Part shown: positions 8,515 to 18,581 of the stretch, piece after piece | Position numbering within the stretch: position 1 is the stretch's first letter | Layout: every line of letters starts with the position of its first letter | DNA from: Rhodobiaceae bacterium | Lineage (GTDB): Bacteria > Pseudomonadota > Alphaproteobacteria > RS24 | Assembly (NCBI GenBank): GCA_038123715.1 | Contig: JAYPAN010000004.1 | Location: 4,744-68,743, forward strand | DNA: 64,000 nucleotides | Direction of reading: 5' to 3' | Translations under genes and position numbers: made by a program | Notes under the pieces: generated by a model | Seen by the model: the letters and a program-made list of their open reading frames with translations, nothing else | What the model was told of the DNA's origin: nothing | The model's database searches: none

Positions 8515-9888
8515 ATGTTCAGTATTTTTTCCGGACTTGGTATTCGTGCTGCGGTTTGTGCGGGCTTGATGCTGGCGGCCTTAACGTCAATGTCTCCGGC
8601 TCGCGCGCAGATGGATGAGGCGTGGCGTCCCCAAAAATCAACAACGCTGATTGTTCCCTCCAATCCCGGCGGCGGTTGGGATCAGACAGCGCGCTTCATG
8701 CAACGGGCAATTGAGGCAAATAAGCTGTCACCGACATCGGTGGAAGTGATAAATCGCGGCGGCGCCGGTGGAACAATCGGCTTGACCGAATTGGTCGAAC
8801 GCCATGCCACCGACCCCTATAAATTGATGGTAAGCGGTTTTGGCATGACCGGCTCGGTTTTAATGCATTCCAGCAAGCATAATATCATGTCAACCACGCC
8901 GCTTGCGCGTCTGACGAGTGAATATCAGGCGATTGCGGTGCCAGCCAATTCGCCGTTCAACTCTCTCGATGACTTATTGACCGCCTTCAAAGCCAATCCG
9001 AAAGCGTTTAGTTGGGGGGGCGGCTCAGCTGGCGGTTCTGACCATATTTTTGCTTATTTGCTGGCTGAGGCCTTGGATATTGAGGCAACCAAAGTCAATT
9101 ATGTCGCCTTTACCGGCGGCGGTGAGGCTTCCGCCGCGCTTTTGGGCGGTCAGGTGGATGCCGGTATTTCAGGCTTTGGCGAGTGGGGCGGCTTGGCCGA
9201 TTCCGGTCGTATTCGATTGCTCGCTGTGTCCTCCGACCAACGCATGGCGGATGATGACACACCGACTTTCCGCGAACTCGGCATTGATTTGCTGTTTGCA
9301 AATTGGCGCACCATTGTCGCCGCCCCCGGCATCACGCGCGCTCAGAAGGAATGGTATGTTGACTTGTTGCGCCAGGCACGCGCCTCTGATGAATGGCAGG
9401 AAACGCTGAAGCGTAATAATTGGACGGATAGTTTTTTGACCGGCGAGGATTTCGATAATTTCATTATCGCCGACAGCGCACGCACCGCCCGCATATTGCA
9501 GCGTGTCGGGATATCGGGCGATAAGGGGACAAGCTGGGCAGCGGTCGGGCCTTATTTATTTCCCAATATCGCGATGGCGGGTCTGATTATTTTGGCCGCA
9601 CTTATTTTCTGGGAAAGCCGTCGGCACGCAACCGCCGGTGCTGCGCCCGACATGTCAGAGGAAAAGCATCCCGACACAAAGGCTTTCGTGCAAACGGCGG
9701 CAATCATTTTCGCCTATATTTTGGGTTTGAAGTTTATCGGCTTCATCTTTGTCACACCGCCGGTTATCGTAGCGCTTTCGTATCTGCTCGGCTCACGCGC
9801 CTATGGGCGCGACATTGCTGTCGGCTTGTCGGTTACCGCGCTTATCGTCGTCATATTTGAACATCTTTTAAATGTAGATGTTCCCTAA
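8515..9888 (+). CDS. tripartite tricarboxylate transporter TctC substrate-binding domain fused to a TctB-like 4-TM domain
   Basis: Signal peptide, then Bug/TctC hallmarks (NPGGGWD, NRGGAGGTIG, FTGGGEASAALLGG). One frame continues into about 130 aa with four hydrophobic segments, sitting where tctB normally lies, immediately before tctA. Confidence 0.8.
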   Translation: MFSIFSGLGIRAAVCAGLMLAALTSMSPARAQMDEAWRPQKSTTLIVPSNPGGGWDQTARFMQRAIEANKLSPTSVEVINRGGAGGTIGLTELVERHATDPYKLMVSGFGMTGSVLMHSSKHNIMSTTPLARLTSEYQAIAVPANSPFNSLDDLLTAFKANPKAFSWGGGSAGGSDHIFAYLLAEALDIEATKVNYVAFTGGGEASAALLGGQVDAGISGFGEWGGLADSGRIRLLAVSSDQRMADDDTPTFRELGIDLLFANWRTIVAAPGITRAQKEWYVDLLRQARASDEWQETLKRNNWTDSFLTGEDFDNFIIADSARTARILQRVGISGDKGTSWAAVGPYLFPNIAMAGLIILAALIFWESRRHATAGAAPDMSEEKHPDTKAFVQTAAIIFAYILGLKFIGFIFVTPPVIVALSYLLGSRAYGRDIAVGLSVTALIVVIFEHLLNVDVP

Positions 9889-9906
9889 TTTTGCAGGGCC
9901 TTAATT

Positions 9907-11421
9907 ATGTCAGAGTCACTTTTCACAAATCTTGCCAATGGATTTTCAGTCGCCGCGACGCCGGAAAACCTGCTTTTTGGCGTTATTGGTGTGGTTCTTG
10001 GAACCGCAGTCGGTGTGCTGCCCGGTCTTGGCCCGGCGGTTGCCATCTCCCTGCTTTTGCCCCTAACTTTCGGTCTTGATCCGATTGCCGCCTTTATCAT
10101 GTTTGGCGGTATTTATTACGGCGCGATGTTTGGCGGCGCGACGACTGCGATTTTGGTCAATACGCCGGGCTGTTCATCCTCTGCTGTCACCACTTTTGAC
10201 GGGCATCCATTGGCCAAGCAGGGGCGGGCAGGAACGGCGCTCAGCACCGCCATTATCAGCTCTTTTGTCGGTGGGACATTTGCCACATTGGCGCTGATGT
10301 TGCTGGCGCCAAGTTTGGTTGAATTGTCGCTGCTTTTCGGGCCGCCTGAATATTTCGCCTTGATGCTTTTGGCGCTGGTATTAGTGTCCACCATTGGCGG
10401 CGCGTCGCTGTCAAAATCGGTCTTTGCCACTTTTCTCGGCTTTGCCATCTCGCTCATTGGCATTGATATGCAAACCGGTGTGTCGCGCATGACTTTCGAT
10501 ATTCCGGAGCTTTACAGCGGCATAAATGTGGTGCTGGCCGGTATCGGCCTGTTTGCGGTCGGAGAGGTTTTGTGGGTTATGTCCGGCGGTGGCGCGGAGC
10601 CGGATGAAAATGCCGGCCTGCGCGGCAGTCTGTTTTTGACGCTCAGCGAATTAAAGAAATCGGCTATGGCTTGGTTGCGAGGCACGGTTCTGGGTTTCTT
10701 CGCGGGTATTTTGCCGGGATCAGGTGGCACTTTGGCGGGGTTCATGGCTTATGGTGTTGAGCAACGCTTTTCCAAAACGCCGGACAAGTTTGGCAGCGGC
10801 TTGGTGGAAGGCGTTGCCGCGCCCGAGTCAGCCAATAATGCGGCGGCGGGCGGCAGCATGGTTCCGCTTCTGGCGCTTGGTATTCCGGGGTCTGCGACAA
10901 CTGCGGTGATGCTGGTGGCGTTCCAGATTTACGGTTTGCAGCCCGGCCCGCTATTGTTTGAAAATAGCGGCGATTTGGTTTGGGGTTTGATTGCCAGCCT
11001 GTATATCGCCAATGTGCTTCTGGTTCTGTTCAATCTGCCACTTGTTGGTCTTTGGGCGCGTTTATTGACATTGCCGCAGGGGCTTCTTTATGGCTGCGTT
11101 CTCGTTTTTTCAAGCCTTGGCGCTTATTCGCTCAAAGGCAGTATTGGCGATGTTTTTATTGTCTATGTTTTGGGGGTCATGGCTTTTTGTATGCGTCGGT
11201 TTGGTTTTCCTGTCGCCCCTGTGCTGCTCGGTATTGTTTTGGGGCCACTTATTGAGCAGGAATTCCGTCGCGCCATGTCGATTTCGGGTGGCGATATTAT
11301 GATTTTTGCGACCCGCCCGATTGCCTTGACTTTATTTGCCCTGACCGCCCTGTCTTTGATTGTGCCATTGGCGCGAAAATCGCGCAATAAGACAGGTCTG
11401 GGTGCGCTGCAAGGCGACTAA
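9907..11421 (+). CDS. tctA: tripartite tricarboxylate transporter large permease TctA
   Basis: 504-aa polytopic membrane protein with typical TctA motifs (GVLPGLGP, GILPGSGGT, AAPESANNAAAGG). Confidence 0.9.
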   Translation: MSESLFTNLANGFSVAATPENLLFGVIGVVLGTAVGVLPGLGPAVAISLLLPLTFGLDPIAAFIMFGGIYYGAMFGGATTAILVNTPGCSSSAVTTFDGHPLAKQGRAGTALSTAIISSFVGGTFATLALMLLAPSLVELSLLFGPPEYFALMLLALVLVSTIGGASLSKSVFATFLGFAISLIGIDMQTGVSRMTFDIPELYSGINVVLAGIGLFAVGEVLWVMSGGGAEPDENAGLRGSLFLTLSELKKSAMAWLRGTVLGFFAGILPGSGGTLAGFMAYGVEQRFSKTPDKFGSGLVEGVAAPESANNAAAGGSMVPLLALGIPGSATTAVMLVAFQIYGLQPGPLLFENSGDLVWGLIASLYIANVLLVLFNLPLVGLWARLLTLPQGLLYGCVLVFSSLGAYSLKGSIGDVFIVYVLGVMAFCMRRFGFPVAPVLLGIVLGPLIEQEFRRAMSISGGDIMIFATRPIALTLFALTALSLIVPLARKSRNKTGLGALQGD

Positions 11422-12860
11422 TCAGCCGGGGTCTGGTCGGAGAAAAAATCTTCGAGGAAAAATGCCGCCAAGTCTGACCGGTTGTTGAGTCCGGATTTGG
11501 CGTATATGGCACCGGCTTGTTGGCGGACGGTTCGTTCGCTTTTTTCGCGCGCATCCGCCATTTCTTTAAAGGATAAGCCTTTCAGCAGCATCCACCCGAT
11601 TTCCGCCTCAGCCGGGGTCAAGCCCCATTCGGTGAAACTTTCATTGATGTGCGTCGCGGCTTCAGAATGGGTCTGATCCAATTGCGCGCGCACCCTATCC
11701 GCATCCGAGCGGGCGGCATTTAGTTCGCGTGCCATGCCTTGTTCGCGCCAATTATTGCGATAGCGTTGCCATATCAGCAAGGCTAATAGGCCGAGCGCCA
11801 GCAAAACCGAAATAATCGCCCAAAGATATTGACGCATCATGACGGAGGCAAAGCGGTCAGCCGCATTGGCGTCCTCAGCCTGTGCGGCAGCGCGGGTCAT
11901 GTCACGGCTGACGGCGTTTTTCTCATCTTGCAGAAAAGCGGTGAAGGCTGTCGGCGCCAGCCAAGCAGATTCCCATCCATATCTGCGGGTTTCTGCTTTC
12001 CATATATCGCTTTTGGTCATTTGGCGAAACACGGCTTCGAGATGATTTTGCTGCTCCAATGTAATGGCAGATGAGGCGAAAACGCCACGCCAATCGCCAT
12101 TTGTGAATTGCAACCCGAAATCTGCCAAGGGTGGCGCAGCTATACCATCGAGATAAGTGTCGCCGGCCACGGCGATAATACGCACCCGACCCAATTCCGC
12201 ATATTCGGCAATTTCCTCATAGGAGGACACATTGATTGCATTGTCGATTTCCAGAAATCGTTTCACAGCGGCAGTGCCGCCGCCCGGCGTCGGCACATAG
12301 CGCATTTGGTCACGCGGATAGCCCAATTGGTCAGCTATCGCCCAAATCAACATTTCATCTATGCTGCCCGATGAGCCGCCTGTCCACGGCAAAGCCTCGG
12401 CGTTGGGCATGTTCATAGCTTCCACCAAATCGCCAAAATCTCGGATGAAACTGTCTTCTCGAACGGCCAGAACAATGCGGGGACGGGTCAATCTGGCAAT
12501 CGGTGTCACATCATCCAATGACACCACAGAATTATTGAAGAAAGCGGCTCCGACCACTGTCCGTCCGCCAATAAAAACAGCAGACGGATCATTGCGGCGC
12601 GACTCGATAAAATTGGCCAAGGCTATCAGGCCACCGGCGCCGGGCAAGCGAACGATATTGACGGTTTCGGCAAGGCCGGAGGCGACAAGCGCGCGCCGCA
12701 ACGCCTGACCCGATTTGTCAAACCCGCCCTCCGGATTGCCGGGAACGTAAATTGTGAGATTAGCCATTTTGGCACTATCGGAGGCCATCGCCCCCGGATT
12801 TGTCAGCAAGGGCAAGGCCATGAAAAATAACACCAGAAATATATGCCTGCAGAGTGTCAT
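11418..12860 (-). CDS. membrane-anchored one-component regulator: periplasmic TctC-like domain - TM helix - coiled linker - LuxR/GerE HTH
   Basis: Signal peptide MTLCRHIFLVLFFMALPLLTNPGAMA. A TctC-like domain of about 300 aa aligns by eye with 8515-9888 (NPEGGFD, LPGAGGLIAL, TPGGGTAAV). One TM helix (YLWAIISVLLALGLLALLIW). C-terminal LTPAEAEIGWMLLKGLSFKEMA...SERTVRQQAGAIYAKSGLNNRSDL is a GerE-type HTH. Confidence 0.75.
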   Translation of the reverse strand: MTLCRHIFLVLFFMALPLLTNPGAMASDSAKMANLTIYVPGNPEGGFDKSGQALRRALVASGLAETVNIVRLPGAGGLIALANFIESRRNDPSAVFIGGRTVVGAAFFNNSVVSLDDVTPIARLTRPRIVLAVREDSFIRDFGDLVEAMNMPNAEALPWTGGSSGSIDEMLIWAIADQLGYPRDQMRYVPTPGGGTAAVKRFLEIDNAINVSSYEEIAEYAELGRVRIIAVAGDTYLDGIAAPPLADFGLQFTNGDWRGVFASSAITLEQQNHLEAVFRQMTKSDIWKAETRRYGWESAWLAPTAFTAFLQDEKNAVSRDMTRAAAQAEDANAADRFASVMMRQYLWAIISVLLALGLLALLIWQRYRNNWREQGMARELNAARSDADRVRAQLDQTHSEAATHINESFTEWGLTPAEAEIGWMLLKGLSFKEMADAREKSERTVRQQAGAIYAKSGLNNRSDLAAFFLEDFFSDQTPAD

Positions 12861-13038
12861 ATTTCCCCCAAAAGGAACCTTATATTGAAAAACAAAGAGT
12901 GCCAAGATGATAGCGTTAGCGCGTGTGGGGCGAACAGTCATAAGTCATTTGTCTTGGTTTGCCGATTTGGCGGCCTTCATGGCTTGGAAGGTTATAGCGA
13001 TTGCGCTATTTTTTGTGGCCCAAATAGGAGTCGCATCA

Positions 13039-13842
13039 ATGAAAATCAGCCTGCCCAATTTTCGGTTTTGTTTTCCTGTCTTATTGGCTATGGCGCTTTC
13101 AGCTTGCGCTGGCAAGCCACCGTCAACCATTCATGTGATGAGTTCGGGAGGGTTCACCGCGGCTTATAAGGTGCTGGGGCCAATGTTTGAAAAGGAAACC
13201 GGAATCCTCCTGGTCACCGCTTATGGCGCATCCGGCGGTGGGGCGCCCGATTCAATACCGGAACGTTTAAAGCGTGGTGAATATGCCGATGTTGTAATTT
13301 TATCACAGCGTGGTTTGGGCAATATTACCAAAGCGGGGCATGTTGACCCGGCCAGCCATGTTGATTTGGCGCGCTCCGGCATTGGCATGGCCGTCTTGGC
13401 GGGCGCGGCGCAACCGGATATAAGCACGACCAAGGCGTTTGTTACCGCCATGCGCGACGCGGCGTCTATTGGCTATTCGGCCAGTGCTAGCGGCACATAT
13501 TTGTCAAAAAAGCTGTTTCCCAAGCTGGGTATATGGGATGAGATTCGTGGCAAATCCACCCGGGTCATCAGCGAGCGCGTCGGCGCTGTCGTCGCGCGCG
13601 GCGATGTTGAAATCGGCTTTCAGCAAATCAGTGAAATCTTACCGATTGCGGGTATTGATTATGTCGGGCCGCTGCCTGACGCGATTCAAAAAATTACCAT
13701 TTTCTCAACCGGCCTGACGCGCGGCGGCAATAAAATGCTGGGGCAGAGGCTTATCGACTATCTGTCAGCCACCGATAAAATTGAGCTTATTGATGCCACC
13801 GGGCTTGATGCGGTTGCCAAGGATTTAGTGGAAAATAGGTAA
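13039..13842 (+). CDS. orphan periplasmic substrate-binding lipoprotein (ModA-like type 2 PBP)
   Basis: AGGAG RBS, lipobox LSAC, and ModA-like motifs (SSGGF, YGASG, GIGMAV, EIGFQQISE). No permease or ATPase gene is adjacent. Confidence 0.55.
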   Translation: MKISLPNFRFCFPVLLAMALSACAGKPPSTIHVMSSGGFTAAYKVLGPMFEKETGILLVTAYGASGGGAPDSIPERLKRGEYADVVILSQRGLGNITKAGHVDPASHVDLARSGIGMAVLAGAAQPDISTTKAFVTAMRDAASIGYSASASGTYLSKKLFPKLGIWDEIRGKSTRVISERVGAVVARGDVEIGFQQISEILPIAGIDYVGPLPDAIQKITIFSTGLTRGGNKMLGQRLIDYLSATDKIELIDATGLDAVAKDLVENR

Positions 13843-14001
13843 TGAGGCGCGTCCAGCCCTTTTGCGCCACCTTATTGCAAAAGCGCGGCGCAACTTCCAT
13901 GTGTTATTGGTTTCCGGCCAAAGGCGATTTTTTCAAATCAGCTCAATTTACATGCGCTTCGCTCACTGTTTAGCGGCACTTATTATTAGTTGAGGTTTTT
14001 T

Positions 14002-15051
14002 ATGACAATCACGCAATCTGCGCCCGACACGACACATAAATTACACGGCATGCTTATGTCGCCGTTTTCGATGAAGTTGCGAGCTTACCTGCGGTATCGC
14101 CGCATCCCCTTTCAGTGGTGCAATAATGCGCGCGCGCATGAAATCGCCATGACGAAAGTCAGCACCTATATGGTACCGGTGATTGAATACCCCGACGGCA
14201 CATTCGAGAATGATTCAACGCCAATCATCGATAAGTTTGAAGAGAATATTGCTGCGCGCCGCACGGAACCTGAGAATGAAGCAGACGCCTTTCTCGCTTA
14301 CTTGATAGAAGACTTCGCAGACGAATGGTTGCTCTGGCCCTTCTTTATGCATCGTTGGCGCTTGGAGGCAGACCAAAAATACAACAGCCAGTGGATTCTC
14401 TATGAGGCGCTGCAGGGCCATGTCCTCGATGATGATTTTGCGGCTCAGAGTGAATTTTGGGCCAGTCGTCAATTGAAAGGCCTGAAATTGCTTTGTGGCA
14501 GTCCCGATTATGACGCATTACTCGACGACAGTCTGCAAACGTTTTTGGGCATTATGGAAAATGCCGTATCAAGCAGACTATTTTTTTTTGGTTCGCGCCC
14601 GTCTCGTGCTGAGATTGCGATTTACGGGATACTCTCTCAAGAAATACAGGATCTCTCAGCTTCTTCATTTATGTATGAGAAGTATAGATTCACGACGCGC
14701 TGGGTAAGCATGATTGACGACCTGAGTGGCGTGGAGGGAGAATGGGAACCTCTAAGCACCGATAGAGAAAAACTTTTGGCGTCACCGGTAGCAGAAATAC
14801 TGGAGCTAAGCGGGAAATACCATTTGCCGTTATTGCTTGCCAATGAAACAGCTCTCGCCAATGGCGAGGGTGTATTTTCCTTTGATATCGATGGCACTAA
14901 GTTCACGCGCAATTCCCACCTTCGCCATGCAACTTGTTTGCCCGCGCTGCGAAAACGCTACGCTCAGCTTTCCGGAGAGTCAAAGTGCGCGCTTAAAACC
15001 GTTTTGGAAAAATCGAACTGCTTGATGTATCTGGCCGATCATGCCGCGTAG
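14002..15051 (+). CDS. glutathione S-transferase-like protein (thioredoxin-fold N-domain)
   Basis: N-terminal SPFSMKLRAYLRYRRIPF...VPVIEYPDG...DSTPII is a GST_N-like pattern. GAGG RBS lies 6 nt before the ATG. The gene is visibly AT-richer than its neighbours. Confidence 0.5.
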   Translation: MTITQSAPDTTHKLHGMLMSPFSMKLRAYLRYRRIPFQWCNNARAHEIAMTKVSTYMVPVIEYPDGTFENDSTPIIDKFEENIAARRTEPENEADAFLAYLIEDFADEWLLWPFFMHRWRLEADQKYNSQWILYEALQGHVLDDDFAAQSEFWASRQLKGLKLLCGSPDYDALLDDSLQTFLGIMENAVSSRLFFFGSRPSRAEIAIYGILSQEIQDLSASSFMYEKYRFTTRWVSMIDDLSGVEGEWEPLSTDREKLLASPVAEILELSGKYHLPLLLANETALANGEGVFSFDIDGTKFTRNSHLRHATCLPALRKRYAQLSGESKCALKTVLEKSNCLMYLADHAA

Positions 15052-15161
15052 AGAGTCCGACCTGCAGTTTGAGCCATTTTCAATTTCCTCAAACAATAAC
15101 GCCTGAAGGTCAATCACTTATTTCTCGTGACACGGTACTGATGGCACGCCCGCAAATTGCG

Positions 15162-15701
15162 CTAGGTCAGCCCGACCCCGCCAAGCACGCCGTGAAACCG
15201 GTAGAGCAGCCAGTAAAGCCCAAGCCCGCCAATAATGGCAACGCCATCTCGATAGGCCGGTTGCTTTTTAGGAAGTTTCGCCGCCAGTGAGAAGCGCCGA
15301 TAAATCGCATAGCCGCCAAAGGTGACGAATATAATGGTCGAGGTTAAATCGCCATTGGCCAAAAGGTGGAGCAGCGCCCAAACAATGATTCCGGTAAGCA
15401 TTGGATGTTTAACATAGCGGCCAATGTTTCCGGGAATATTGCCCGCGACAATCAATATGGTCGCAACAGGCATCAGATAAAGCGCCAGCTCATGCGCGGC
15501 TGGCAGCGGCAACCATAATTGCTGATAGCTGGCCTGCTGATAGCCCAAAACAATCATGACCAGGCTTATGACCGACAAAATGGTCACAATTGCCTCATAG
15601 GCATGAGCGCCGCCAAGGGCTTCAATTTTTCCACGATATCCCAATACCGAAATAAGATGGCTGCCCAAAAATAAAATGCAGCCCGCAATCAAAAGCGCCA
15701 T
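15162..15701 (-). CDS. NnrU family membrane protein
   Basis: Start MALLIAGCILFLGSHL, several TM helices, and HPMLTG..WALLHLLANGD, which is typical of NnrU. Confidence 0.7.
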   Translation of the reverse strand: MALLIAGCILFLGSHLISVLGYRGKIEALGGAHAYEAIVTILSVISLVMIVLGYQQASYQQLWLPLPAAHELALYLMPVATILIVAGNIPGNIGRYVKHPMLTGIIVWALLHLLANGDLTSTIIFVTFGGYAIYRRFSLAAKLPKKQPAYRDGVAIIGGLGLYWLLYRFHGVLGGVGLT

Positions 15702-15902
15702 GTCGCCCCCCAAAGTCCGTTGGCCCGAAACCATTAAGCCAGACCCAGAATAGCCGCCCCTCTGGCCGGGTCTATTATTATTTATTGATATCGCTCAGTT
15801 TTTCTGGCGGCGGAGCCGGTGGCCGGTGGCGCAAATGATTTGGGTTTTTAAGAACTCATCCGCGCGCTGGCTTGTTCAATTATCGGATTTGAGGCCTGTG
15901 AT

Positions 15903-16037
15903 ATGATGAAAAAATGCGTCGCTGTCGTTTTTATTTCTCTTTTTGCCGCAAGCTGCGCCGACCAAGGCTTTAAGCGGCCAAAAGAAGAAACCTATAAAAT
16001 ACCCGAATATGTCACCGGTGAAATCACCGTGAATTGA
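15903..16037 (+). CDS. small lipoprotein (44 aa), below the ORF-track cutoff
   Basis: MMKKCVAVVFISLFAASCADQGFKRPKEETYKIPEYVTGEITVN has a basic N-terminus, a hydrophobic core and the lipobox FAAS-C. It sits in an otherwise empty 350-nt gap. Confidence 0.4.
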   Translation: MMKKCVAVVFISLFAASCADQGFKRPKEETYKIPEYVTGEITVN

Positions 16038-17796: not shown

Positions 17797-18477
17797 TCAT
17801 GGCGCGAGGCGATAACCGCCTTCCTCCGTTAACAGCAATTGCGGCACTGACGGGTCAATCTCAATTTTCTGGCGCAGGCGGTAAATATGGGTTTCCAGCG
17901 TATGCGTGGTGACGCCGGCATTATAGCCCCAGACTTCATGCAGCAGATTTTCGCGCGAGACGGGCGGGCCATCGGCGCGATAGAGAAAGCGCAATATATT
18001 GCTTTCCTTTTCGGTCAAGCGAATCCGCTCGCCATTATTCTGGGTGAGGATTTTCAGCGCCGGTTTGAATTCATAGGGGCCGATTTTCAGCACCGCCGAG
18101 TCGCTGTTTTCATATTGGCGCAAATGCGCCCTTATGCGCGCCAGCAATACACCGAATTTGAACGGCTTGGTGACATAATCATTAGCACCGGCATGAAGGC
18201 CAAGAATCGTATCCGCCTCCGAGCTGGCGCCGGTCAACATGATGATTGGCGCAACAATTTTCTGCTTACGCATGATTTTGCAGGTTTCGCGGCCATCCTG
18301 GTCGGGCAGGCCGACATCGAGCAGAATAAGGTCGAAGCTCTCCTCCCGACAGCGCGCCAAACCGTCCGCCGCCGTATCGGCAAAGACCAGCACAAACTCC
18401 TCATGCAAAGCGAATTGCTCTTCCAGCGCTTCGCCCAGCACAGTATCATCTTCAACCACAAGGATTTTATGCTGCAT
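17797..18477 (-). CDS. OmpR-family response regulator (no adjacent kinase)
   Basis: Receiver domain (ILVVEDD, LILLDVGLPDQDG, KPF) plus a winged-helix output (LTEKESNILRFL, THIYRLRQKI). Start chosen at MQHKILVVEDD. Confidence 0.85.
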   Translation of the reverse strand: MQHKILVVEDDTVLGEALEEQFALHEEFVLVFADTAADGLARCREESFDLILLDVGLPDQDGRETCKIMRKQKIVAPIIMLTGASSEADTILGLHAGANDYVTKPFKFGVLLARIRAHLRQYENSDSAVLKIGPYEFKPALKILTQNNGERIRLTEKESNILRFLYRADGPPVSRENLLHEVWGYNAGVTTHTLETHIYRLRQKIEIDPSVPQLLLTEEGGYRLAP

Positions 18478-18581
18478 GGACAACCTCGTATATTGCGTGT
18501 TGCCCAGCATATAGGGGCGATGGGCGGAGTTGAACCCCCAGATTGCCGGGCGCGGCAAAAGGGCAGCGATATGGATAGGCC

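Follow-up and report, generated by a model that had tools for sequence, protein, structure and literature searches.

BguR of Formosa agariphila, a membrane-spanning transcription factor with a C-terminal GerE domain, has been characterized genetically and compared with SusR of Bacteroides; deletion of bguR abolishes induction, and BguR is an activator (bioRxiv 10.64898/2026.01.10.698779). BguR and SusR each harbor a signal peptide, a periplasmic sensor, one transmembrane (TM) helix, a helical linker, and, at the C terminus, a GerE/LuxR helix-turn-helix (HTH), act without a phosphorelay, and regulate a neighboring locus for outer-membrane uptake, of which a TonB-dependent transporter is part. 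Here we describe a protein of the same topology, hereafter the regulator, encoded on the minus strand at positions 11418–12860 of a 64,000-nt stretch of DNA from an alphaproteobacterial Rhodobiaceae bacterium (GenBank assembly GCA_038123715.1, contig JAYPAN010000004.1, positions 4,744 to 68,743; the whole stretch is referred to as the window). For this protein, too, control of an adjacent uptake locus is predicted. Its sensor is a TctC/Bug-type domain, whereas BguR and SusR carry a tandem β-propeller/Y_Y_Y glycan sensor; the latter two are proteins of Bacteroidota and the regulator belongs to Pseudomonadota, and no homology was detected outside the HTH. The likeness is one of design, not of descent.

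Other known systems resemble the regulator in part. In the BctC–BctDE and TctDE systems of Bordetella and Salmonella, a periplasmic TctC-family protein senses a tricarboxylate and a tripartite tricarboxylate transporter (TTT) is induced, as we infer for the regulator. However, in BctC–BctDE a free solute-binding protein (SBP) signals citrate to a histidine kinase that in turn phosphorylates a response regulator, whereas in the regulator the SBP and DNA-binding domains are covalently linked. ToxR, CadC, and TcpP are single-pass membrane-tethered factors that dispense with a phosphorelay and bind DNA at the membrane, as is predicted for the regulator, but they have an N-terminal cytoplasmic winged HTH, a different DNA-binding fold, and a C-terminal periplasmic sensor. 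A preliminary description of this DNA, made from the letters alone, had called the regulator the mirror image of ToxR-like proteins, which is apt for the topology; the HTH class differs as well. The BvgS and EvgS kinases also have an SBP-fold domain fused to a transmembrane signaling protein, but in their case the domain belongs to the SBP_bac_3 family and the output is a kinase phosphorelay rather than DNA binding. Finally, TcuR, the LysR-type regulator of tcuABC of Salmonella, presumably has the same role as the regulator, the induction of tricarballylate utilization genes, but it is a soluble cytoplasmic protein that senses an intracellular ligand and is not homologous to it.

The preliminary description knew of no characterized example of the architecture. 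For a TctC sensor this stands, while the topology with a C-terminal GerE domain is known from BguR and SusR. Literature searches on LIC13292, TctC+LuxR, and "TctC domain" turned up no paper on a TctC–HTH architecture, and reviews of SBPs in signaling and of TTT systems make no mention of such a fusion. The regulator is an uncharacterized variant of the membrane-spanning one-component regulators.

Architecture of the Regulator

The regulator begins with a signal peptide, which is followed by a TctC/Bug fold, a single TM helix, a linker of helical structure, and a LuxR/NarL-type HTH, an order that had been read from the single open reading frame (ORF) in the preliminary description and on which Pfam TctC, profile comparisons, the AlphaFold2 (AF2) model, and hydropathy agree. 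The minus-strand ORF is uninterrupted over 11418–12941 and would encode 507 amino acids (aa) if started at the farthest ATG (12941). Because a GGGGGA Shine–Dalgarno sequence precedes the ATG at 12860 by 4 nt and the N termini of homologues align there, this ATG, the one chosen in the preliminary description, is the preferred start, giving a gene of 480 aa plus stop codon. Residues 1–26 (12783–12860, minus strand), MTLCRHIFLVLFFMALPLLTNPGAMA followed by SDS, display n-, h-, and c-regions in hydropathy plots and an A-x-A site, and thereby resemble a cleavable signal peptide of signal peptidase I; homologues have equivalent A-x-A-type signal-peptide ends.

The sensor domain comprises residues ~27–327 (11880–12782, minus strand). 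Over residues 60–285 it matches Pfam TctC (PF03401), whose gathering cut-off is 27 bits, with a score of 31.4 bits, which answers the check for a TctC profile hit proposed in the preliminary description. A family profile built from 46 members (A1), which also served as the AF2 alignment, matches TctC/Bug proteins of solved structure in the PDB with E values from 2e-33 (4x9t) to 8e-16. In the AF2 model (mean predicted local distance difference test score 89.6, predicted template modeling score 0.69), the periplasmic domain adopts a two-lobe, type II Venus-flytrap fold that Foldseek superposes on BugD, BugE, MatC, AdpC, and closed TphC with target-normalized template modeling scores of 0.84–0.87. 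The superposition is better on closed than on open forms. In TctC/Bug proteins, a pincer-loop signature, P-F-x-A-G-G-x-x-D, holds the proximal carboxylate of the ligand through two waters (PMC5812351). The corresponding loop of the regulator is VPGNPEGGFD, in which P40, G45, G46, and D48 are each conserved in at least 90% of the family. By virtue of this conserved signature the sensor should bind a carboxylate.

Residues 345–364 (11769–11828, minus strand) are the sole strongly hydrophobic segment besides the signal peptide and form the single TM helix, which begins ~17 residues after the last helix of the sensor. In the AF2 model residues 333–411 form one continuous helix that includes both the TM segment and the linker, the latter spanning residues 365–411 (~47 aa; 11628–11768, minus strand) and being rich in Arg, Glu, and Ala. 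The signal peptide, the single TM helix, and the positive charges that follow it lead us to infer an N-out/C-in topology, with a periplasmic TctC domain and a cytoplasmic HTH, as had also been proposed from the letters.

The HTH corresponds to residues 412–474 (11439–11627, minus strand). AF2 folds this region into a four-helix bundle of the LuxR type (residues 416–426, 431–438, 442–456, and 461–474), and its recognition helix, SERTVRQQAGAIYAKSGL, contains the S-x-[KR]-T-V signature; the residues SERTVRQQ are invariant or nearly so in the family. As a single sequence the regulator matches the DosR/DevR C-terminal domain with an E value of 5e-4, and with the A1 profile the C-terminal domain of NarL and GerE are matched with E values of 6e-4 to 2e-3. 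Relatives with the same output module exceed the GerE cut-off of 23.5 with 25–51 bits, and a precomputed Pfam GerE assignment exists for many of the full-length homologues. The protein is devoid of kinase and receiver domains (HisKA, HATPase, and REC), in agreement with the earlier proposal that no phosphorelay is involved.

A Family of Fusions Built on an Older Output Module

When 5.8 billion proteins were searched, the regulator had 131 matches, more than 110 of which are 430–530 aa long and cover over 90% of the query. A few of these homologues are labeled "LuxR family transcriptional regulator" or [quoted passage not shown] at NCBI. A genome scan with one genome per species revealed 53 full-length regulator loci, mostly in Alpha- and Gammaproteobacteria. 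The carriers include Sphingomonadales, Caulobacterales (Litorimonas and Phenylobacterium among them), Parvularculaceae, Colwellia, Pseudoalteromonas, Cellvibrionaceae, Steroidobacteraceae, Wenzhouxiangellaceae, Woeseiaceae, and Lysobacterales, as well as a few metagenome-assembled genomes (MAGs) labeled as other phyla. In addition, an independent metagenome contig carries a 99%-identical copy of the regulator with the gene order unchanged. The HTH is the best-conserved segment of the family, with the consensus SERTVRQQAxAIYAKSGLxNRSDLAAFFLED, in which many residues are invariant. Linkers of 39, 42, 46, and 48 aa are the most frequent in the family, and this stepping by about one helical turn suggests that helical phase matters.

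The output module is also found outside the TctC fusion. Residues 352–473 of the regulator match the NCBIfam model NF047608, "LIC13292 family transcriptional regulator," with an E value of 3.4e-17. Membership of that family was rejected, as the score of 63.1 bits lies far below the cut-off of 200, and the TM–linker–HTH module is all that the two have in common. The genome scan found 27 further loci (L055–L081) that encode the output module alone, nearly all of them specifying proteins of 165–230 aa in which two TM helices and a short periplasmic loop occur together with the same linker. Like the regulator, NF047608 proteins possess a homologous TM–linker–HTH, a nearly identical recognition helix (TSERTVRQQA), and a similar DNA motif at the ends of their genes; unlike them, the regulator has a signal peptide and a 300-aa TctC domain in place of the first TM helix and the short loop. 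Small two-TM LuxR-type proteins occur in Bdellovibrionota, Anaeromyxobacter, Vicinamibacterales, and others, often with the same DNA motif at the gene ends.

An exhaustive search with residues 334–480 as the query yielded 1,021 cluster representatives (50% identity) at E ≤ 1e-10. Small proteins make up most of these, and among the best 150 there are ~30 TctC fusions; other N-terminal regions, such as a CarboxypepD_reg domain, are also joined to the module. The output module is older than the fusion. No publication on the LIC13292/NF047608 family was found in the literature.

A Predicted Operator in Front of the Tricarboxylate Uptake Genes

The regulator lies beside genes for a TTT, in which a TctC domain is fused to the TctB membrane subunit (tctCB, 8515–9888, plus strand; Pfam TctC and TctB). 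The intergenic regions between tctCB and a divergent receptor gene in the window and in 11 loci of orthologous regulators (Group A) have in common the motif TATCCGTCAAATGAC, which was found better by shared k-mers than by enumeration of exact palindromes. The motif is usually present twice per intergenic region, in opposite orientation and 35–80 bp apart. More symmetric copies read TCCGTCA-AA-TGACGGA, a 7-2-7-like inverted repeat, and the family consensus of the predicted operator is TCCGTCA-AA-TGACGGA(TA) (TCCGTCAAATGACGGA), a form that would suit dimers of the NarL/GerE type.

A position weight matrix (PWM) was built from 15 sites of Group A and the window. Its best match in the 64 kb, with a core score of 22.1, is the predicted operator at 8445–8462 (minus strand; the plus strand reads TGGGTCAATTGTCGGATA), whose agreement with the consensus is best in the promoter-proximal half. 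In shuffled versions of the window (n = 50) the maximum averaged 13.7 and reached at most 21.5. The site is located 53 nt upstream of the tctCB start codon, which lends support to the earlier proposal that the regulator controls the neighboring transporter. A weak half-site, AAGACAAATGAC, is present at ~12937–12955, between the regulator gene and the gene for a ModA-like protein. A second operator in the window, for the TonB-dependent receptor or tcuA, was considered and rejected, no convincing PWM site having been found.

Beyond the training set, one or more sites lie no farther than 300 bp from an end of the regulator gene in 26 of 43 loci, a count that overstates independence since many of the operator-bearing loci are closely related Novosphingobium/Sphingomonadaceae MAGs. 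PWM matches occur at 1.44 per kb near regulator gene ends and at 0.053 per kb elsewhere in the same 43 loci, a 27-fold difference. The motif accompanies the regulator gene across four cargo contexts, including loci with quite different cargo. In Sphingomonas sp. SUN039 the sites are clustered between the regulator and receptor genes; in L054 and L037 the predicted operator precedes the ModA-like gene, and in L004 a weaker predicted site precedes tcuA. In the loci of the small two-TM proteins there are few PWM matches of 12 or more, and most of these are at the ends of the small-protein gene, which strengthens the link between this HTH and the motif. On these grounds we assign the motif to the regulator by co-occurrence, and the predicted operator before the tricarboxylate uptake genes is probably the place where the regulator binds.

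The operator also has a fixed relation to what lies downstream. Its orientation is constant, with the GGATA end always toward the downstream gene, and in the window a −10-like hexamer, TATACT (8484–8489, plus strand), is found 21 nt beyond it. This spacing corresponds to a positional spike: TAnnnT occurs at offsets 20–21 beyond the GGATA end in 11 of 77 distinct sites, compared with a mean of 0.83 per offset and with 3 on the other side of the motif. No −35 match was found ahead of the TATACT at 8484–8489. The position of the hexamer beyond the site would place the operator center near −42.5 (−42 to −43). Class II activators sit near −42.5, as LuxR does at the lux box. Several receptor promoters (L003, L004, and L005) contain TTGTTGC(A/C) some 18–25 nt beyond the receptor-side operator, a short element that might belong to the promoter or to a longer version of the site.

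The Tricarballylate Locus and Its Relatives

The genes around the regulator form what is, by its gene content, a tricarballylate utilization locus that brings along uptake systems for both the outer and the inner membrane. This identity, which the preliminary description overlooked, is given by TcuA and TcuB, both of which score above the NCBIfam equivalog cut-offs. The tcuA gene (3933–5312, minus strand) encodes the FAD-dependent tricarballylate dehydrogenase (NF006130, 643 bits against 369) and tcuB (2870–3943, minus strand; start taken from the L082 gene call) the tricarballylate utilization 4Fe-4S membrane protein (TIGR02484, 326 bits against 247). A TonB-dependent receptor gene (5441–8179, minus strand; Pfam Plug and barrel; start from the L082 gene call and a ribosome-binding site) is divergent from tctCB, and its product contains no N-terminal signaling domain. 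The gene for the large TTT membrane subunit, tctA (9907–11421, plus strand; Pfam TctA, 513 bits), follows tctCB, the predicted target, and is convergent with the regulator gene. On the other side of the regulator, and divergent from it, is the gene of an orphan ModA-like lipoprotein of the SBP_bac_11 (SBP11) family (13039–13842, plus strand; Pfam, and PDB ModA with an E value of 1e-7). This lipoprotein has no ABC partner and is a conserved neighbor of the regulator in alphaproteobacterial loci.

Neither a LysR-type TcuR nor a TctDE pair was found in the locus, in keeping with the earlier statement on TctDE. The sole receiver-domain gene of the window encodes an orphan OmpR-type regulator (17797–18558, minus strand), 5 kb away among housekeeping genes; no histidine kinase gene adjoins it, and it lies outside the conserved synteny.

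Several features of the locus are noted in passing. The TctC–TctB fusion, also missed in the preliminary description, tethers the transporter SBP to the membrane; 12 orthologues have the same fusion, and it is present in at least 13 loci in all. A 2018 review of TTT systems mentions a TctA–TctB fusion as the only one. At 11418–11421 the stop codon of the regulator gene overlaps that of the convergent tctA, with no terminator between them, and a similar 4-nt convergent overlap of the regulator gene, with another neighbor, is seen in L084. The GC content is 0.46–0.55 over the tcu/TTT/regulator region (1–16000) and 0.57–0.62 in most of 16000–64000, apart from a dip to 0.51–0.53 at 34–38 kb; the high-GC part holds leuS, parB, and gidA at 21–30 kb. 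The catabolic cluster may have been acquired horizontally, as an island. An Rfam scan of the window gave zero matches, and a generic terminator scan gave nothing informative.

Neighborhoods were compared by tblastn of the window proteins against 54 full-length loci, and further contigs were looked up. In Group A the gene order (SBP11 ← regulator → ← TctA ← TctC–TctB, receptor →) matches that of the window, and the synteny of SBP11, regulator, TctA, TctC–TctB, and TonB-dependent receptor extends over 12 loci of Alpha- and Gammaproteobacteria, with the receptor as a conserved partner. In Sphingomonas sp. SUN039, SBP11, tcuAB, and the receptor are kept and carriers of the major facilitator superfamily (MFS) replace the TTT system. 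Group B has a separate tctC-(B)-A operon followed by the regulator, with amidohydrolase and peptidase genes close by, and in Groups C and D the regulator is flanked on one side by an MHS-type MFS or CitMHS carrier and on the other by a TonB-dependent receptor. One of the looked-up contigs has DctM/DcuC- and DcuA/DcuB-type carrier genes beside the regulator, and another has two MFS carrier genes. The common theme of the family loci is a carboxylate carrier together with an outer-membrane receptor, and the frequent linkage of regulator, receptor, and carrier (in the window and in L001–L054) suggests that organic acids cross the outer membrane by a TonB-dependent route. No other transcription factor and no protease gene is conserved at the regulator loci. 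Many family members have no TTT neighbors, which makes a role of the regulator in transport itself, the delivery of substrate to TctAB, unlikely.

What the sensor binds was considered also from its relation to the adjacent TctC–TctB. The two proteins are 28% identical over 336 aa (BLASTP, E 7e-35), in an alignment that contains the blocks aligned by eye in the preliminary description, and profile–profile comparison joins residues 26–325 to 38–337 with an E value of 3e-77. Derivation of the regulator TM helix from the first TM helix of TctB was considered, as the BLASTP alignment runs through the TM segment, and was rejected: the profile comparison stops with the TctC domain, and the extension is compositional. 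The preliminary description had taken the similarity to mean that both proteins see the same ligand. This argument does not hold, given the 28% identity and the fact that paralogous regulators of other loci are closer to the TctC–TctB of the window (35–41% identity) than its own regulator is. A shared ligand is suggested instead by the logic of the regulon, and from context the ligand in the window is likely to be tricarballylate or a carboxylate related to it. The orthologous loci L037, L054, and L084 encode an FAD_binding_2 paralogue of TcuA, of 488 aa and with 34–36% identity, and TcuB was not detected in them by tblastn or among the gene calls; these loci hint at a related but different substrate. 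The gammaproteobacterial members of Group A have neither true tcuAB nor this paralogue.

Proposed Mechanism and Alternatives

Taken as a whole, these data are fairly likely to be best explained by a phosphorelay-free, membrane-spanning one-component regulator that probably activates carboxylate uptake from the predicted operator. In the proposed mechanism, the periplasmic TctC domain would bind a tri- or dicarboxylate, in this case most likely tricarballylate or a close relative, and closure of the Venus-flytrap lobes would alter the packing or rotation of a putative dimeric pair of TM and linker helices. The two HTHs would then dock on TCCGTCA-N2-TGACGGA while the protein is still in the membrane. 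The site at 8445–8462, ~42–43 bp upstream of the predicted tctCB–tctA transcription start, would stand in for the missing −35 element; with the operator center at ~−42.5 in place of a −35, a class II-type activator of the uptake operon is the most likely assignment. In related loci the genes for the TonB-dependent receptor and the ModA-like lipoprotein, as well as tcuA, may also be under the control of the regulator. It would thus substitute functionally for TctDE/BctDE or for the LysR regulator TcuR, but without a phosphorelay.

Several results weigh against parts of this account. As a single sequence the regulator scores 20.8 bits (E 3e-4) against Pfam GerE (PF00196), just short of the cut-off of 23.5. 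The whole 64-kb window contains no second PWM match of 12 or more, and control of the TonB-dependent receptor and tcuAB is unsupported here; neither 5313–5440 nor the region near 8180–8440 has a match of 9 or more. Of the two regions named as targets in the preliminary description, 8210–8514 contains the predicted operator at 8445–8462, and 5313–5440 has none. A generic σ70 promoter scan found nothing at TATACT, the −10 assignment being one of pattern, and to this is added the relatedness of many operator-bearing loci mentioned above. Finally, tricarballylate is not secure as the ligand, because true tcuAB genes accompany the regulator in only ~5 of 14 orthologous loci and in none of the gammaproteobacterial members.

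Activation is not the sole way in which the predicted operator could be used. The site covers the position expected for a −35 element, some motif sites are at other distances from start codons, and several LuxR/NarL-family proteins act as repressors, so that the unliganded regulator might instead sit on the tctCB site and be freed from it upon ligand binding. We regard such repression as rather unlikely. No −35 element is recognizable beside a good −10; the sharp phasing of the −10-like hexamer at 20–21 nt is typical of activator-dependent class II promoters; and the characterized analogue, BguR, is an activator.

A further question is whether an activator of this kind would read the ligand or its transport. 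Since the sensor is a transporter-type SBP, and the orthologues are in close linkage with a TTT whose own SBP is tethered to the membrane, the sensor might dock on the TTT membrane subunits or compete with the tethered TctC–TctB, thereby reporting transport in the manner of CadC–LysP or BctC–BctE; indeed, BctC both signals to BctE and feeds the transporter. The many members that adjoin MFS, CitMHS, or DctM-type carriers, with no TTT genes nearby, argue against such co-sensing, as does the lack of homology between the regulator TM helix and TctB in the profile comparison, and we hold it to be improbable.

Direct sensing by an activator at the predicted operator presupposes that the motif has been given to the right protein. 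As the two are linked by co-occurrence, the motif might belong to another, unlinked regulator, the fusion having a different target or no DNA-binding role. This seems a shade less probable again than co-sensing: the motif tracks the regulator gene in four cargo contexts and, in other phyla, even the small two-TM paralogues, the loci have no other conserved transcription factor, and a 7-2-7 repeat suits NarL/GerE-type dimers. Scarcely different in standing, and if anything lower, is the view that ligand triggers proteolysis near the membrane and frees a soluble linker–HTH fragment, a mode known for other membrane-tethered transcription factors and for anti-σ factors. The locus has no conserved protease gene, the linker lengths at helical-turn steps (39, 42, and 46 aa) suggest that the phase of an intact helix matters, and the targets, adjacent membrane-protein genes, suit a tethered factor. 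That the ORF is an artefact, two genes fused by a frameshift or an assembly error near 11.75 kb, a caveat raised in the preliminary description, can be dismissed with near certainty, as the fusion is present in the more than 110 full-length homologues, the 53 genome loci, and the independent, near-identical metagenome contig, and AF2 runs one continuous helix through the supposed junction.

Significance

The analysis also leads to a broader proposal, which we put forward tentatively, holding it slightly less likely than not to be right. The TM–linker–HTH would be a general phosphorelay-free transmembrane module with a conserved operator of its own, into which different sensors have been plugged: none in the small two-TM proteins, TctC in the regulator, CarboxypepD_reg-like domains, and others. 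In the TctC version, an SBP of the transporter type would for the first time be seen wired directly, across the membrane, to a DNA-binding domain, and this version would govern the paired uptake of carboxylates through the outer membrane (TonB-dependent) and the inner membrane, with a TonB-dependent tricarballylate route among the systems controlled.

If the account given here is correct, a single protein would let Gram-negative bacteria read periplasmic organic acids and switch on the genes for their uptake, and the large TctC/Bug family would join the sensor domains used in the control of transcription. This would bear on the long-standing puzzle of the "orphan" Bug proteins that are encoded beside regulators, and it would supply a predicted operator and promoter geometry that are directly testable. 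The SBP–TM–HTH design is, in addition, an attractive natural scaffold for whole-cell biosensors. For the bacteria themselves, it would suggest that marine and soil members of the Alpha- and Gammaproteobacteria take up tricarboxylates by a TonB-dependent route.

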